A stretch of 29,237 bases of DNA, taken from the sequence record NC_028943.1. One strand, given 5' to 3'. The notes beneath the pieces are model-generated. The model did no database searches and had not been told where the DNA came from. It saw nothing but the letters and a program-made list of their open reading frames with translations. The translations under genes and the position numbers were made by a program. Below, in pieces: positions 1,193-22,449 of the stretch. Every line of letters starts with the position of its first letter. The stretch's first letter is position 1. Origin of the DNA: Escherichia phage pro483.

Positions 1193-1492
1193 TCAGCCAG
1201 TCTTCTGGTCTGAGTGGTGCAAGGTTGTTGAGTCTTGCCCAATGTGTGCGAGAGCCGGGGCTATTTGTCCAGCTGCTGGATCTGTTTCATCAAACATGAA
1301 CCAGTCACGATACTTGCGAAAGCGTGGATGCTTAAACAGCTTCATACCTGCTTCCATAGGCATTTTTGATTTTCCTGATTCATATCCATGATATGTGTAG
1401 TAATTAATTCCAATCAATTCAGCAAGTTCCTTAGTTTTAAGGCGTTCGGATTCACGGATGAGCTTTAGTTTCTCACTTTGTTCACTTGACAT
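1193..1492 (-). CDS. C: Immunity repressor, P2 C-type (HTH)
   Basis: 99 aa from ATG at 1492 (the ORF track extends it from a TTG at 1510); C-terminal ...GQIAPALAHIGQD...HSDQKTG closely resembles my memory of P2 C; divergent from cox. Confidence 0.85.
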   Translation of the reverse strand: MSSEQSEKLKLIRESERLKTKELAELIGINYYTYHGYESGKSKMPMEAGMKLFKHPRFRKYRDWFMFDETDPAAGQIAPALAHIGQDSTTLHHSDQKTG

Positions 1493-1585
1493 AATTTTGC
1501 TAATCTCCAATTATATTGTTACTTGGCAATTTGTGATTCGCTCAAAAAGGCTCTAGATGGCTCCAGTTGGTGAATCGCAAATCTT
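1493..1585. promoter_or_regulatory. C/cox divergent switch region (putative Pc/Pe promoters and operator)
   Basis: 93-bp intergenic region between divergent repressor and cox; imperfect dyad ATTTGTGATTCGC (1529-1541) / GTGAATCGCAAAT (1570-1582); candidate rightward promoter TTGTGA (1531-1536) - 17 bp - TAGATG (1554-1559). Confidence 0.45.
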
Positions 1586-1957
1586 ATGGAGGATAGCAAA
1601 GTGACGACAAATGTAGAAATTTCTTGTCCAACTAGCGATGAGGCAAGTTTCGAAAATGAAGCCAAACGTAAAAGCATTCAGATTTCAGAGCGCCCATCTG
1701 ATTTGCTGTCGAAAGAAGGTTTTGCTCTTTACATCGGTAAGACACCACGCGCGGTGGCTGAAATGGCTAAAGCAGGAAAGCTGCCAGCCTTCTACATGAC
1801 AGACCCATTAAAACCAAGAGGGAAAGCTGAATTATGGATTAATCGCCGTGAGTGGGACAAGTACGCAGCCCAGCTAGTTGATGAAGCTCCGACAGAATGG
1901 CATGACTGGAAAAATCGCATTAGTTACAGCAAATCAAGACATGGCCGTGCGGCTTAA
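1586..1957 (+). CDS. cox: Cox-like excisionase / switch regulator, with N-terminal extension (start uncertain: ATG 1586 or GTG 1601)
   Basis: Core FALYIGKTPRAVAEMAKAGKLPAFYMTDP aligns with the remembered P2 Cox HTH region; GGAGGA at 1588-1593 favours GTG 1601; about 40 extra N-terminal residues relative to P2 Cox. Confidence 0.7.
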   Translation: MEDSKVTTNVEISCPTSDEASFENEAKRKSIQISERPSDLLSKEGFALYIGKTPRAVAEMAKAGKLPAFYMTDPLKPRGKAELWINRREWDKYAAQLVDEAPTEWHDWKNRISYSKSRHGRAA

Positions 1958-1967
1958 GGTGGAAAGG

Positions 1968-2138
1968 ATGAACGAGCCTCGTTGTATTGCTCAGTTATTG
2001 CGTAACGAAAGCCCCAGGGCGATTGAGTTCACCATCACCCACGGTAAGGGGCGTAAGGGAATCATTATCCGCACCAAAAAACAGAGTCCGTTAAAGAAGG
2101 CTCTGACCTTTCTGAAAAGCCGGAGGGTCTGGAAATGA
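1968..2138 (+). CDS. Small basic hypothetical protein (occupies the P2 orf78 position)
   Basis: 56 aa from ATG 1968 preceded by AAGGTGGAAAGG; sits between cox and B; lysine/arginine-rich C-terminus. Confidence 0.5.
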   Translation: MNEPRCIAQLLRNESPRAIEFTITHGKGRKGIIIRTKKQSPLKKALTFLKSRRVWK

Positions 2139-2635
2139 CAGTGATGACGCTTAATCTCGTTGAAAAACAGCCAGCAGCTATGCGCCGGATAATTGGTAAG
2201 CATCTTGCCGTCCCTCGCTGGCAGGAGACATGCGATTATTATAATCAGATGATGGTACGCGAACGGCTAACGGTTTGCTTCCATGCGCAGTTAAAACAGC
2301 GTCACGCAACGATGCGTTTTGAAGAAATGAATGATGTCGAACGTGAACGACTGGTATGTGCAATTGATGAATTGCGTGGGGCATTCTCAAAACGCCGTCA
2401 GGTTGGCGCAAGTGAGTATGCATATATTAGTTTTTTAACAGTCAGTCAGCGTCGTACTTTATTTATGCATGCCGGATTGACTGAAAAAGAATTCAACCAG
2501 CCATACTGGCGAATTAATGAAGAATCATGTTACTGGCGTGATGCTTTATTCCGTGCATTACGTGAATTATTCAGCCTGTTTGAGTATGCACCGACAATTC
2601 TGACGTCGGTAAAACCAGAGCAATATCTGCATTAA
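2135..2635 (+). CDS. B: Replication protein B (P2 gpB, helicase-loader-like)
   Basis: 166 aa; N-terminus MTVMTLNLVEKQPAAMRRIIGKHLAVPRWQ... matches my memory of P2 B nearly residue for residue. Confidence 0.9.
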   Translation: MTVMTLNLVEKQPAAMRRIIGKHLAVPRWQETCDYYNQMMVRERLTVCFHAQLKQRHATMRFEEMNDVERERLVCAIDELRGAFSKRRQVGASEYAYISFLTVSQRRTLFMHAGLTEKEFNQPYWRINEESCYWRDALFRALRELFSLFEYAPTILTSVKPEQYLH

Positions 2636-2698
2636 GTAATTAACCAGAGTTTTTAACGCACTTAATTGTGCGGGGCTTCTTTTTGCCTGGAGAAAGTC

Positions 2699-5882: not shown

Positions 5883-5985
5883 TGATTTAATGAAATTTCG
5901 GAGTCATAAATATTGTGTATTTAACTAGATGATTGCAATATAAGTGCTTATTATTTATGCGATTATAGCCATAACGGAGCTGAGT

Positions 5986-6915
5986 ATGAGTGTTGCAAGG
6001 CATCATCATTTTTTATCCCAATGTTATTTGAAAGGGTTTACAAGTAATGGGGGGAAAAAATCAAAATTAACTGTAATAGATTTAAAGGAGCGCAAAACCT
6101 TTGAGAGTAATACTCGCAATGTCGGGGGGGTTAGAGATTTCAACCGATTAGAATTGGATGGAGTTGACCCAAACTATCTCGAGAGTTCTCTTGCAGAGTT
6201 TGAAGGCAGTGTCGCTACTCATTTAAGAAAACTTGAGGAGGGGGGCGAGTTTTCAGGCGAAACCAAAGATGTTATTCTGGAGTTTATTTCCTTATTGGCA
6301 ATACGTACGCCTGCTCAGCGAGAACATTTATCATCTCCATTGAAACAAATAGCAAAGTTTATCATGAAATCCTCAGTTAGTTCGGCTGAGCGTTGGGACG
6401 ATTGCAAATTAGCTTATGAGAAAGAAATGGGTGAGTCTTTGCCATATGATCTCGCTTACGAAAAAATTAAAAATTTTGTGGATGGGGATAATTTCGAAAT
6501 CAATGTAATCAGAGAGTTCATGATAGATATGGAAATGAAATGTGTACCTGTTATCACCAAGTTGTTGCATCAACGCAACTGGTCACTTATGACCATATCT
6601 GATGGGCAAGGGTCATTTATAACTTCAGATAACCCAGTTTGCTTAATGTGGACTAATCCTGAATTAGCACGAGGCCCTTATTCCCCCGGGTTTGGTGTAA
6701 AAGACACTTTAGTTTTGTTCCCAGTATCAAAAAACCTTCTTTTGGCGGGCGAGTTTGATGGTCATGAGGGTGTATTCAGTTGTAATGAGGAGCAGGCTGC
6801 GGTCTTCAATACTTCAGTCATTCGGCATACCGCAGAAAGAATATTTTCATCTAATGATAATTTCAAATTTTTAGACTCATCTAAAAAAATGAAGCAAGGC
6901 AAAAGCCTGGTTTGA
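5986..6915 (+). CDS. Cargo gene in the P2 tin/old hotspot: DUF4238-like protein, candidate single-gene anti-phage defence
   Basis: 309 aa from ATG 5986 (GGAG 6 nt upstream); N-terminal HHFLSQCYLKGFT and internal FITSDNPVCLMW resemble the DUF4238 (PF14022) signature from memory; strongly AT-rich against GC-rich flanks; located between A and cos. Confidence 0.75.
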   Translation: MSVARHHHFLSQCYLKGFTSNGGKKSKLTVIDLKERKTFESNTRNVGGVRDFNRLELDGVDPNYLESSLAEFEGSVATHLRKLEEGGEFSGETKDVILEFISLLAIRTPAQREHLSSPLKQIAKFIMKSSVSSAERWDDCKLAYEKEMGESLPYDLAYEKIKNFVDGDNFEINVIREFMIDMEMKCVPVITKLLHQRNWSLMTISDGQGSFITSDNPVCLMWTNPELARGPYSPGFGVKDTLVLFPVSKNLLLAGEFDGHEGVFSCNEEQAAVFNTSVIRHTAERIFSSNDNFKFLDSSKKMKQGKSLV

Positions 6916-18457: not shown

Positions 18458-19061
18458 TTCGCGCCTGCTGCCGACCGGCTCATCACCGCTTGAAGTTGCC
18501 GCCGCAAAAGCCTGTGCGGAAATTGAAAAAACGCCGGTCAGTATTCGTGAGCTGTGGAACCCGGACACCTGCCCGGCAAATCTGCTGCCGTGGCTGGCGT
18601 GGTCATTTTCGGTTGACCGCTGGGATGATAAGTGGCCGGAAGCGACAAAACGCGCTGTTATCCGCGATGCGTATTTCATTCACTGCCATAAGGGCACTAT
18701 TGGTGCGATTCGCCGTGTGGTGGAGCCGCTCGGCTATCTGATTGAGGTGAGGGAGTGGTGGCAGCTCAACGAGGAGCCGGGGACGTTCCGCATCGTTGTT
18801 GGCGTGCTTGAGCAGGGTATTACCGAGGAAATGTATCAGGAGCTGGAGCGTCTCGTTGCTGATGCAAAACCTGCAAGCCGCCATCTGACGGGACTGGCTA
18901 TCAGTTTAAGTACAACCGGCAACATTTTTGCCGGTGCGGGATGCTATCACGGCGACGCCCTGACGGTTTATCCCTACACCCCGGAGGCCATTATTGTCGG
19001 AGGGGATTATTTCCCGGCCTCGGCCATTCATTTAATTGATAACCTGAGAGTAAACGCATGA
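18450..19061 (+). CDS. I: Baseplate / tail protein I
   Basis: 203 aa (P2 I is about 176 aa from memory); overlaps J and H in the operon. Confidence 0.85.
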   Translation: MSDSRLLPTGSSPLEVAAAKACAEIEKTPVSIRELWNPDTCPANLLPWLAWSFSVDRWDDKWPEATKRAVIRDAYFIHCHKGTIGAIRRVVEPLGYLIEVREWWQLNEEPGTFRIVVGVLEQGITEEMYQELERLVADAKPASRHLTGLAISLSTTGNIFAGAGCYHGDALTVYPYTPEAIIVGGDYFPASAIHLIDNLRVNA

Positions 19062-20257
19062 CAGTGAAATACTACGCCATTCTGACTAATCAGGGCGCGG
19101 CACGGCTGGCTAACGCGACGATGCTCGGCAGTAAGCTGAATCTGACGCAAATGGCCGTTGGTGATGCAAATGGTGTGTTACCAACACCAGACCCTGCACA
19201 AACAAAACTGATTAACCAGAAACGCATTGCACCGCTGAATCTTCTGAGTGTTGACCCGAATAACCAGAGCCAGATTATTGCGGAGCAAATCATCCCTGAG
19301 AACGAGGGCGGATTCTGGATCCGTGAGATTGGGCTTTATGATGATGAAGGCGTACTCATTGCGGTGGCAAACTGCCCGGAAACGTACAAACCGCAGTTGC
19401 AGGAAGGAAGCGGTCGTACCCAGACTATCCGCATGATTCTGGTTGTCTCGAATACCGAAGCCATCACGCTGAAAATCGATCCGTCGGTGGTACTGGCGAC
19501 CCGTAAATACGTGGATGATGAAGTCCTGGAATTAAGGCTGTATGTGGATGACCAGATGAGAAACCACATTGCCGCACAGGATCCTCATACCCAGTATGCA
19601 CAGAAACATAATCCGACATTTACCGGAGAACCAAAAGCGCCGACGCCTGCCGCAGGAAATAACACCACGCGGATTGCGACCACTGCGTTTGTTCAGGCCG
19701 CTATTACCGCTCTGATTAACGGTGCGCCAGCCACGCTGGACACACTGAAAGAAATTGCCGCAGCCATTAACAATGACCCGAAATTCAGCACCACCATTAA
19801 CAATGCGCTGTCAGGTAAGCAGCCACTGGATGAGACGCTGACTCATTTGAGCGGAAAGGATGTTGCCGGCCTTCTCGCATACCTTGGTTTGGGAGAAGCG
19901 GCAAAACGGGATGTAGGGACAGGGGAAAATCAGATACCGGACATGGCCTCGTTTGCCAGTGGTGATGGATGGATGAAATTACCCAACGGGAAAATCCTGC
20001 AATATGGTCGTGGTGCGGTTACGCCGACATTATCGACGCAAACAATGAGAATTACATTCAGCATCCCTTTTCCTAAAAAAGTGGACTGCGCCATGCTTAC
20101 TCATTCTGGTGATGGTGGTGCGCCTTTAGGTGCTGGGCGGGGATTCGTGATGACCGCAGAAGGCCCAACATTAACCGGTTTTAATTCTGCTTACAGAACG
20201 TCATCAACCAGCGACACGGTATCGATGAATTACAGTTGGTGGGCTGTTGGTGAGTAA
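19058..20257 (+). CDS. H: Tail fibre protein H (constant N-terminal part plus currently expressed variable C-terminal module Hv)
   Basis: 399 aa; N-terminus MTVKYYAILTNQGAARLANA... is P2 H-like; a 26-bp recombination site sits in-frame at codons LAYLGLGE (19872-19897). Confidence 0.9.
   Translation: MTVKYYAILTNQGAARLANATMLGSKLNLTQMAVGDANGVLPTPDPAQTKLINQKRIAPLNLLSVDPNNQSQIIAEQIIPENEGGFWIREIGLYDDEGVLIAVANCPETYKPQLQEGSGRTQTIRMILVVSNTEAITLKIDPSVVLATRKYVDDEVLELRLYVDDQMRNHIAAQDPHTQYAQKHNPTFTGEPKAPTPAAGNNTTRIATTAFVQAAITALINGAPATLDTLKEIAAAINNDPKFSTTINNALSGKQPLDETLTHLSGKDVAGLLAYLGLGEAAKRDVGTGENQIPDMASFASGDGWMKLPNGKILQYGRGAVTPTLSTQTMRITFSIPFPKKVDCAMLTHSGDGGAPLGAGRGFVMTAEGPTLTGFNSAYRTSSTSDTVSMNYSWWAVGE
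19872..19897. repeat. Left crossover site for the DNA invertase (gix/hix/cix-like), TTCTCGCATACC-TT-GGTTTGGGAGAA
   Basis: 26-bp pseudo-palindrome resembling hixL/gix sites (TTxTC..AAACC / GGTTT..GAxAA); inverted relative to the site at 21775-21800 with the GGTTTGGGAGAA half identical. Confidence 0.65.
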
Positions 20258-20277
20258 TTTTATTCAGGGTGATTTAT

Positions 20278-20721
20278 ATGAACGAATATGTTTATAGCGC
20301 AAGGCATAATGCTTTTTTCCCTGTGGATATGATTGATAAATATAAATCAGAGGGATGGGATTTATCAGACGCTAAGGAAGTAAATCAAAATATTATCAGT
20401 GAGTTTATGGCTGAACCGCCACAAGGAAAAATCCGTATTGCCGGAGATGATGGGCTGCCTGCGTGGGCAGATATTCCTCCACCCACGCATGAAGAGCTTA
20501 TTGAAATTACTGAATCAGAAAGACAGCTACTAATTAACCAGGCCAACGAATACATGAACAGTAAGCAATGGCCCGGTAAAGCCGCTATTGGTCGTCTGAA
20601 AGGTGAGGAACTGGCGCAATATAATTTGTGGCTGGATTATCTGGATGCACTGGAGCTGGTTGATACCTCCAGTGCACCAGATATTGAATGGCCTACGCCT
20701 CCGGCAGTTCAGGCCAGATGA
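20278..20721 (+). CDS. G: Tail fibre assembly chaperone G (orientation currently expressed)
   Basis: 147 aa from ATG 20278 (the ORF track starts at GTG 20269); C-terminus ...LWLDYLDALELVDTSSAPDIEWPTPP resembles the conserved tail-fibre-assembly C-terminal motif; AT-rich 5' half. Confidence 0.8.
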   Translation: MNEYVYSARHNAFFPVDMIDKYKSEGWDLSDAKEVNQNIISEFMAEPPQGKIRIAGDDGLPAWADIPPPTHEELIEITESERQLLINQANEYMNSKQWPGKAAIGRLKGEELAQYNLWLDYLDALELVDTSSAPDIEWPTPPAVQAR

Positions 20722-21295
20722 CATCCGGCGCGGTGCTGGTATCTGTTGCCGTCACCGCGTCAATGTAATCCAGCACAGCGTTAAGTCTGGTTGTTTCTGC
20801 CTGCGTCAACTTCCGTCCGGCCTGTAATTTCAGCTGAATCAGACTAATGGAAGCCATTGCTGCATCAATCAGTGACTGGCGCTGTGCTTCTGCCGCGTCT
20901 ACTGCGGCACTATGCTGTGCCTCAGTATCCGTCACCCATTTCTCACCATCCCATTTATCATATGGCGTTAACGGGGCGATAGTGGTTGTATTTTCAGGGT
21001 AATCACCCGGAGCTGTGATTTCTTTCGATTCTCCTGTTTCGGTGCTATAGATGATTTCACCGCGATGGTCTGGCACATATTCCCATGAGTTAAAATCTGC
21101 AGAACGGCAGATTGCATAACCAGCTTTGTATGCGCCTGGGGCATCTAAACAGGAATATGCCGGAATGCCGACACCAATAGCAAGATATTCAGTTGAGGCT
21201 GAAATATATTCCCAACTCATGACATCAAAGTTATAAACAGTAATTTCTCCTGCCATAGTGGCAATTAATTCACTGTTTAATTCTGCGTTATTCAT
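20693..21295 (-). CDS. Alternative tail fibre assembly chaperone G' (partner of Hv')
   Basis: 200 aa on the opposite strand; C-terminus ...LNAVLDYIDAVTATDTSTAPDVIWPELPEA shares the motif with G; converges tail-to-tail with G (29-bp overlap). Confidence 0.8.
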   Translation of the reverse strand: MNNAELNSELIATMAGEITVYNFDVMSWEYISASTEYLAIGVGIPAYSCLDAPGAYKAGYAICRSADFNSWEYVPDHRGEIIYSTETGESKEITAPGDYPENTTTIAPLTPYDKWDGEKWVTDTEAQHSAAVDAAEAQRQSLIDAAMASISLIQLKLQAGRKLTQAETTRLNAVLDYIDAVTATDTSTAPDVIWPELPEA

Positions 21296-21786
21296 TATGC
21301 AGCCCTCACAATATAGTTAAAAGCGACATTTCGTGGGCGTGTTTCATTCGCACCTGCAGGTTTAGTCGTTGCCGCAACAACACCACCCTCTGTAATAGCC
21401 GGGTTGGGAATTGGGTAATTATCGAAGTCAATGGCCGGAGACAGGGGCTTGATTTGTTTTAAAATCGTGGTGCCTGTAAAACTTTCCAGAGTCTGGTCGT
21501 TAGTTCGTGAAGTCCAGATTCCCCAATAGTGGTTATGACTGACAATCGCACCGTCCTGAAGCGTTAATAATCCCCTTCCGTTATCCACTCCACGCCCATC
21601 ATCCCAGCCACGAATAAACTCACCGCGTAAATCAGGCAATTTATTTGTCGGGTAAACCTTTGCCAGTTCCGGGTATTCTTCAGCAGAAAAAGCCGCCCCG
21701 TTGCATTTCAGCCAGCCTGTCGGCGGAGTGGCTGAAGGCCACGGAACAGGCACACCGACGGGTAATGCCGAACCTTCTCCCAAACC
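21295..21786 (-). CDS. Alternative tail-fibre C-terminal module Hv' (promoterless; fused to the H constant region only after inversion)
   Basis: ORF of 177 aa on the track, but the functional part starts at the crossover (codons GLGE at 21775-21786); contains a tail-collar-like motif (WLKCNGAAFSAEEYPELAKVY...LPDLRGEF); same codon phase as H across the shared GGTTTGGGAGAA. Confidence 0.7.
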   Translation of the reverse strand, partial: GLGEGSALPVGVPVPWPSATPPTGWLKCNGAAFSAEEYPELAKVYPTNKLPDLRGEFIRGWDDGRGVDNGRGLLTLQDGAIVSHNHYWGIWTSRTNDQTLESFTGTTILKQIKPLSPAIDFDNYPIPNPAITEGGVVAATTKPAGANETRPRNVAFNYIVRAA

Positions 21787-21800
21787 AACGTTTATGAAAA
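21775..21800. repeat. Right crossover site for the DNA invertase, TTCTCCCAAACC-AA-CGTTTATGAAAA
   Basis: Reverse complement TTTTCATAAACG-TT-GGTTTGGGAGAA shares the full right half with the left site; lies 56 bp upstream of the invertase start. Confidence 0.65.
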
Positions 21801-21855
21801 TGCAGAGATAACGGGTAACTGGCATCATCTCCGGTTTTTATTCAGGGGGATGCTC

Positions 21856-22449
21856 ATGCTTATTGGCTATGTACGCGTGTCAACAAATGACCAGAACACG
21901 GAATTGCAGCGTAACGCGCTGGAGTGCGCAGGATGTGAGCTGATTTTTGAGGATAAAATCAGCGGCACTAAGTCCGACCGACCGGGACTGAAAAAACTGC
22001 TCAGGACATTATCGGAGGGGGATACACTGGTGGTCTGGAAGCTGGACAGGCTGGGGCGTAATATGCGGCATCTGGTCATTCTGGTTGAGGAACTGCGCGA
22101 ACGCGGCGTTAATTTTCGCAGCCTGACGGATGCTATTGATACCAGCACGCCGATGGGGCGTTTTTTCTTTCATGTGATGGGTGCCCTGGCTGAAATGGAA
22201 CGAGAACTCATTGTCGAGCGGACTCGGGCCGGGCTGGAAGCGGCCAGAGCCAAAGGTCGTATTGGTGGCAGACGTCCTAAACTCTCCACGAGTGAGTGGG
22301 AGCAGGCCGGGCGTTTGCTGGCTGCAGGGGAGTCACGTCAACGCGTGGCACTGATTTTTGATATTGGTCTGTCCACGCTCTATAAAAAATTCCCCTCATC
22401 AGCGACAAAGAATAAATTGTGTCATCCCTTAACCAACCGGGACAAATAG
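21856..22449 (+). CDS. Serine DNA invertase (Gin/Pin/Hin/Cin family)
   Basis: N-terminus MLIGYVRVSTNDQNTELQRNAL... with catalytic serine context and C-terminal HTH, closely resembling Gin/Pin; start at ATG 21856 (GGGGGA Shine-Dalgarno spacing fits better than ATG 21850). Confidence 0.9.
   Translation: MLIGYVRVSTNDQNTELQRNALECAGCELIFEDKISGTKSDRPGLKKLLRTLSEGDTLVVWKLDRLGRNMRHLVILVEELRERGVNFRSLTDAIDTSTPMGRFFFHVMGALAEMERELIVERTRAGLEAARAKGRIGGRRPKLSTSEWEQAGRLLAAGESRQRVALIFDIGLSTLYKKFPSSATKNKLCHPLTNRDK

Follow-up and report, generated by a model that had tools for sequence, protein, structure and literature searches.

The early region of Escherichia phage pro483 contains a small open reading frame (ORF) between the genes cox and B, and this locus raises the question of whether the frame encodes a real protein and what such a protein would do. 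We analysed the ORF within a window of 29,237 nucleotides (the whole stretch of DNA under study, from sequence record NC_028943.1), which represents a near-complete P2-like (Peduovirus) genome. The encoded 56-aa protein matched PHROG 273 (function unknown) with an E value of 3.8e-40, residues 1-56 aligning with profile positions 1-56 of 56, and tblastn gave 98.2% identity over 100% of the query to the product of P2 orf78 (NC_001895), and likewise to AF063097. The gene is named Orf78 in AF063097, with no function note, orf78 in phages L-413C and D8, and gp78 in Wphi. P2 Orf78 shares with the protein studied here its length of 56 aa, its position between cox and B, and its ATGA overlap with B. 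The sole substitution is E20 in pro483, where nearly all E. coli relatives have D20. While the P2 gene follows a cox of 91 aa, pro483 orf78 is preceded by a heterotypic cox of 123 aa. It is near certain that the ORF at 1968-2138 is the orf78 of P2-like phages. The gene is already catalogued, and the finding is a re-discovery of a known, uncharacterised gene; since orf78 is already annotated in the P2 record AF063097, the re-discovery is in itself ordinary. The initial annotation, made from the letters of the DNA, had seen no obvious function in this ORF, and none is assigned in Pfam, NCBIfam, PADLOC, PHROG or searchable papers. Pfam, NCBIfam and PADLOC scans of the 56-aa protein and of all 67 family members in our alignment (A1) returned nothing meaningful. 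Among the searchable papers, the one that lists P2 Orf78 (PMC3091744, table 4) gives 'unknown' as its function, and no experimental study of orf78 came up, the main P2 papers lying outside this literature. A word-indexed search returned 187 clusters, all from Enterobacterales, and when 1.84 billion representative proteins were searched exhaustively with an HMM, only 32 clusters were returned, all belonging to the orf78 family, with no outgroup. As judged from these sequence searches, the orf78 family is narrow.

The boundaries proposed in the initial annotation were exact, with an ATG at 1968 and a TGA at 2136-2138 on the plus strand. Upstream, int (104-1099) and the C repressor gene (1193-1492) lie on the minus strand. 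A consensus scan detected a plus-strand promoter-like site, TTGACA-17-AATTAT (1486..1514, 10/12 matches). In the P2 record the -35 hexamer of the early promoter Pe overlaps the start of gene C, as it does at this site, and by analogy we infer that the site occupies the position of Pe and would serve cox, orf78 and B. The upstream neighbour of orf78 is cox (1586-1957, plus strand; Pfam Phage_Cox, 3e-29), the last gene of the immunity module, which is of a type unlike canonical P2 and is labelled Cox in phage D8. This heterotypic cox has an N-terminal extension, and some records annotate only 65 aa. The Shine-Dalgarno sequence of orf78 is as strong as had been claimed: TAAGGTGG (1955-1962) matches the consensus TAAGGAGG at 7/8 positions, with a 5-nt spacer to the ATG. 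The TAA within TAAGGTGG is the stop codon of cox, and TAAGGAG is found at the same distance from the ATG in most of the relatives with unrelated upstream DNA and in many with other upstream genes. Downstream, gene B (2135-2635, plus strand, 166 aa) matched PHROG 235 at 1.8e-103, and its product gpB carries the annotation 'required for lagging strand synthesis'. The ATG of B overlaps the orf78 stop codon (ATGA), and its Shine-Dalgarno sequence, GGAGG (2122..2126), lies inside codons 52-53 of orf78, 8 nt ahead of the B start codon. These two codons are CGG AGG here (2121-2126), and CGG AGG, AGA GGG or AGG GGG across loci. A terminator-like hairpin followed by a T-run (2657..2682, plus strand), found by scanning, ends the cox-orf78-B segment; the P2 record AF063097 marks a putative rho-independent terminator at the equivalent place. 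The genes orf80 to orf83 and A come after B.

Nucleotide substitutions were compared across 28 species-level Enterobacterales prophage loci. Among the loci less than 90% identical to the stretch, residues 1-38 (1968..2081) had pN values of 0.01-0.35 against pS values of 0.3-0.9, whereas residues 39-56 (2082..2135) had pN values of 0.3-0.8 against pS values of 0.2-0.95; the loci L004-L006, with 95-98% identity, held too few substitutions to inform this measure. These values indicate strong purifying selection on residues 1-38, and alignment A1 and an AlphaFold2 model delimit the same conserved core. Eleven residues are invariant and 14 are nearly invariant, and the invariant ones (P4, I7, A8, L11, I23, T24, H25, G28, G31, I33 and I34) use 2-5 synonymous codons each. 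The orf78 frame is the only one open in all 29 sequences compared, the five remaining frames holding stop codons in essentially every locus. Because this frame alone is open, because the codons of the invariant residues vary, and because pN is low in the core, orf78 is almost certainly a genuine protein gene and not a chance ORF. Conservation across P2-like phages, a matter raised in the initial annotation, was borne out by the selection on the core in the 28 loci and by the intact ORF in 78 of 80 close IMG/VR relatives, and few small genes in the P2 early operon are as well conserved as orf78. An RNA element was also considered for this region and rejected: no Rfam match was found, the folding energy was no better than that of shuffled sequences (z = +0.7), and every other frame was closed.

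The conserved part of the protein differs from the part that first draws attention. Orf78 is strongly basic, with 15 lysines and arginines against three acidic residues and a pI of 11.7, and throughout the family the pI is 10.3-12 and the net charge +7 to +13. The AlphaFold2 model (pLDDT 76, pTM 0.40) predicted a helix at residues 7-14 (PRCIAQLL), a beta-hairpin (21-25/32-36) with an H-G-K-G-R-K-G loop, and a second helix at 41-55. The loop is conserved in the family as H-G-K/R-G-R-K-G and is rich in glycine and basic residues. The lysine/arginine-rich C-terminus emphasised in the initial annotation is present, since the last 18 residues include six lysines or arginines and no acidic residue, but it is the least conserved part of the protein; what is conserved is the N-terminal helix and the hairpin. 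The tail exists in several unrelated versions, including a non-helical, less basic Yersinia type, and the positions in it that vary least, R52 and R/G53, are those whose codons make up the Shine-Dalgarno site of B. The basic character of the tail is partly dictated by that site. The family and fold searches recovered no recognisable DNA- or RNA-binding domain or fold such as helix-turn-helix, ribbon-helix-helix or AbrB-like. A Foldseek search of the model against BFVD gave a best E value of at least 0.7, and a sequence profile search of the PDB gave 0.83, neither identifying a relative. We also considered a membrane-targeting amphipathic tail and rejected it, the hydrophobic moment of the P2-type tail being no better than that of shuffled sequences (191/500).

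The association of orf78 with its neighbours was examined in 28 genome loci, 13 Yersinia-type viral loci, 80 IMG/VR loci and annotated phages including P2, L-413C and D8. In all 130 copies examined, orf78 lies directly upstream of B and overlaps it, whatever the immunity module; among the 142 sequences compared, 130 had orf78 and all 130 of these had B. The stop/start overlap, ATGA or ATGnnnnnTGA, occurs in every locus, and the phage collection contains 73 records with orf78 and 73 with full-length B. Pairwise distances of orf78 correlated with those of B (r = 0.84, a value that adjacency alone inflates), orf80 (0.78) and orf83 (0.75), against 0.49 for cox and 0.37 for C. In a Megablast search, phages with the canonical P2 immunity region matched only from query position 469, which corresponds to window position 1968, the ATG of orf78. 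Homology to canonical P2 begins exactly at this ATG, which places the boundary of the immunity module with the next one at the start of orf78. In addition, the switch ahead of orf78-B can be of the P2 type (C/cox) or of the 186 type (CI/apl/cII). By these sequence comparisons, orf78 belongs to the replication and early-function module, not to the immunity module, and it is inherited as a unit with B. According to Odegrip et al. (2000), as cited in PMC12661323, gpB of P2 binds the host DnaB helicase.

B was found without orf78 in five distant loci. Prophages of Dickeya, Pectobacterium and Yersinia mollaretii encode B homologues, 46-49% identical, without orf78, the slot being occupied by an unrelated ORF of 156 aa that includes a hydrophobic segment (L115, 1534-2004), by an unrelated 113-aa ORF (L116, 1624-1965) or by nothing (L118, 1945-2000). 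In L116 and L118, B has its own Shine-Dalgarno sequence and starts after a gap, with no coupled ORF upstream. The dependence is one-way: orf78 never occurs without B, and B sometimes occurs without orf78. Several rearrangements were observed around this pair. In prophages of E. albertii (L006, 2264-2900) and Huaxiibacter (L016, 2392-2951), an insert of about 700 bp that carries two ORFs, one in each direction, separates cox from orf78, and the cox/orf78 junction therefore accepts extra cargo. In two E. coli prophages (L120 and L121, 3001-4391; CP022154 and CP051001), an IS30-family element with an HTH_38 + rve transposase interrupts orf78 at about codon 46 and parts it from B; this prophage lineage accounts for 30 blocks of the collection, of which 24 contigs were read. 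Two natural in-frame deletion fusions were found in E. coli, P0188 joining Orf78 1-45 to B 21-166 and P0183 joining Cox 1-52 to B 20-166. The two fusions stop at nearly the same point in B, and the prophages encoding them are probably defective.

Outside the family, the sole candidate relative detected for the conserved core of about 38 residues is Fil of phage 186, which inhibits cell division and is not a regulator. Phage 186 carries fil, followed by the overlapping gene dhr, in the slot that cII bounds on one side and the terminator with the DUF2732 gene (a homologue of orf80) bounds on the other. Fil has 75 aa and belongs to Pfam PF10893 (Phage_186_Fil, DUF2724); notes in the GenBank record state for fil that 'overexpression blocks cell division' and for dhr that it 'inhibits host DNA replication'. 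Other prophages carry at this slot either Fil with DUF5347 (L123-L126) or Fil with Dhr (L127-L128), and Fil overlaps the next gene in phage 186, L123-L125 and L127, with no overlap in L126. Fil resembles Orf78 in several respects. Its gene is the first after the switch genes and lies ahead of the terminator and the DUF2732 gene; the protein is small and basic (pI 10.6), with a conserved N-terminal part and a variable tail, which reaches the next gene; and the two share an N-terminal motif, M..EP..(I)A.LL...SP. On the other hand, Fil lacks the G-K-G-R-K-G loop, P2-type Orf78 lacks the motif GWI.G.DGKRWHP, and the partners of Fil are dhr or DUF5347, never B, whereas the partner of orf78 is B. 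The Fil tail itself differs by partner, Dhr or the unrelated 112-aa DUF5347, with forms of 66 aa and 75 aa. In the 142 sequences, orf78 and Fil never co-occur.

Direct comparison of P2-type Orf78 with Fil gave a weak signal. No match to PF10893 (gathering score 25 bits) was found at E <= 10 for the 56-aa protein or for any of the 67 members of A1. Profile alignment with hhalign gave a probability of 8-19% and a P value of 0.001-0.004 over the 16-19 columns of the shared motif; the score was attained once in 200 column shuffles and almost equalled by the reversed control, so that the controls are borderline. At this level, the Fil motif EPSFASLL.K.SP is partly present in pro483 Orf78 as EPRCIAQLLRNESP, and GWI.G.DGKRWHP is absent from it. 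A Yersinia subtype of orf78 (A7) does contain the latter motif, as GIIIRPDGRRWAPP; its members have 57-58 aa, always overlap B and carry a conserved tail, RPDGRRWAPPxGTF. This subtype aligned with P2-type Orf78 at a probability of 96% (E 2e-9) and with Fil at a probability of 54% (E 1.2e-4) over 36 collinear columns. The score obtained with Fil, 25.5, exceeded that of every one of 300 column shuffles (maximum 19.8), and the reversed control scored 8.9. In a Pfam scan, all 11 members of the subtype matched PF10893, with a best E value of 0.011, and the sole other match was of one member at E 0.2; the best PF10893 score was 13.2 bits (L129), under the gathering score. In the alignment of the Yersinia subtype with Fil, the hairpin loop, an invariant feature of orf78, is deleted, and a structure model of Fil (pLDDT 62) was too poor for a fold comparison. 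Taken from these alignments, it is likely that Orf78 and Fil are remote homologues.

Our preferred reading, which we hold tentatively and at somewhat less than even confidence, is that orf78 encodes a Fil-like, host-directed early protein that most likely acts on cell division. By analogy with P2, Pe would drive transcription of orf78 together with cox and B; translation would start from the gene's own Shine-Dalgarno sequence and be linked to that of B through the ATGA overlap. The N-terminal helix and the beta-hairpin would form the functional part, and the basic tail would be a variable appendix carrying the ribosome-binding site of B. In P2-type phages the gene would then correspond to 186 fil, to which it is probably remotely homologous. 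It may open an exchangeable early cassette of two genes, with a small first product that would be directed at the host and a second gene that would handle replication, B by binding DnaB in P2 and Dhr by depressing host replication in 186. However, only for Fil is a cell-division phenotype documented, in an annotation of the GenBank entry for 186, and a B-specific role would account equally well for the strictly one-way linkage between orf78 and B.

Such a role would be that of an accessory replication factor physically partnering gpB, for example a basic adaptor that helps B bring DnaB to the displaced strand, with translational coupling setting a fixed ratio between the two. A gene that never occurs without B, while B is found without it, shows the pattern expected of an accessory to B; all 130 copies adjoin and overlap B behind two kinds of immunity module, orf78 and full-length B are equally numerous in the phage collection, their distances correlate, and the net charge of the family is consistent with the idea. 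We nevertheless consider it unlikely. In Dickeya, Pectobacterium and Y. mollaretii, B keeps its own Shine-Dalgarno sequence without orf78, and since B exists without orf78 it has no general need of it. Furthermore, the pairing of Fil with the unrelated dhr and DUF5347 argues against a partner-specific contact of Orf78, no DNA-binding fold was found, and the distance correlation is inflated by adjacency. Alternatively, the peptide itself might be functionless, its translation merely delivering ribosomes to the start of B, as the stop/start overlap in every locus and the position of the B Shine-Dalgarno sequence inside the orf78 tail could suggest. The 11 invariant and 14 nearly invariant residues, together with the low pN relative to pS in the core, make this very improbable; B also has a good Shine-Dalgarno sequence of its own and starts uncoupled in L116 and L118, and no RNA structure sequesters its start.

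The initial annotation had proposed a small regulator or nucleic-acid-binding protein, which in this operon could tune early transcription, termination after B or the translation of B. The site, within the early regulatory operon and just before the terminator, would be appropriate, and both the high pI of the family and its glycine-rich, basic loop point in this direction; the high positive charge alone makes nucleic-acid binding by Orf78 possible. Against this, the searches matched no nucleic-acid-binding family or fold, helix-turn-helix and ribbon-helix-helix included, and neither a conserved RNA structure (z = +0.7) nor an Rfam match was found. The lysine/arginine-rich tail on which the proposal drew evolves fast and is replaced in the Yersinia subtype, and the family travels with the replication module, not with the switch that it would supposedly regulate. 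The proposal thus found little to sustain it, and we regard a regulatory role as quite improbable.

Returning to the Fil-like, host-directed reading, short early proteins of temperate phages that are dispensable for the basic lytic machinery and target the host divisome include lambda Kil, Rac KilR and Qin DicB. Their likeness to Orf78 is an analogy of kind only and depends on the putative link to Fil. If that link is true, orf78 gains a testable phenotype, filamentation on induction, and the early regions of P2 and 186, otherwise described as non-homologous at this position, would be unified. In a wider form that we consider doubtful, Orf78 and 186 Fil would constitute one unrecognised superfamily whose members open host-takeover cassettes, the first protein arresting division and the second (B, Dhr or DUF5347) capturing or shutting down the host replication machinery. 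If this superfamily reading is true, P2 has an unnoticed cell-division inhibitor.

Two further features of the phage were observed outside the early operon. Just after A, at the position of the P2 tin/old cargo hotspot, a plus-strand gene of 323 aa (5944-6915) matched DUF4238 in Pfam (5e-39) and 'DUF4238-Pers' in PADLOC (1.8e-219), and it is therefore a candidate anti-phage defence gene. The region at 19058-22449 carries a tail-fibre gene and an assembly gene on the plus strand, with an alternative collar-domain fragment and a second assembly gene on the minus strand (20693-21828). A serine invertase gene (Resolvase + HTH_7; 21850-22449) comes next, and by analogy the region looks like an invertible host-range switch of the Mu G-segment type.
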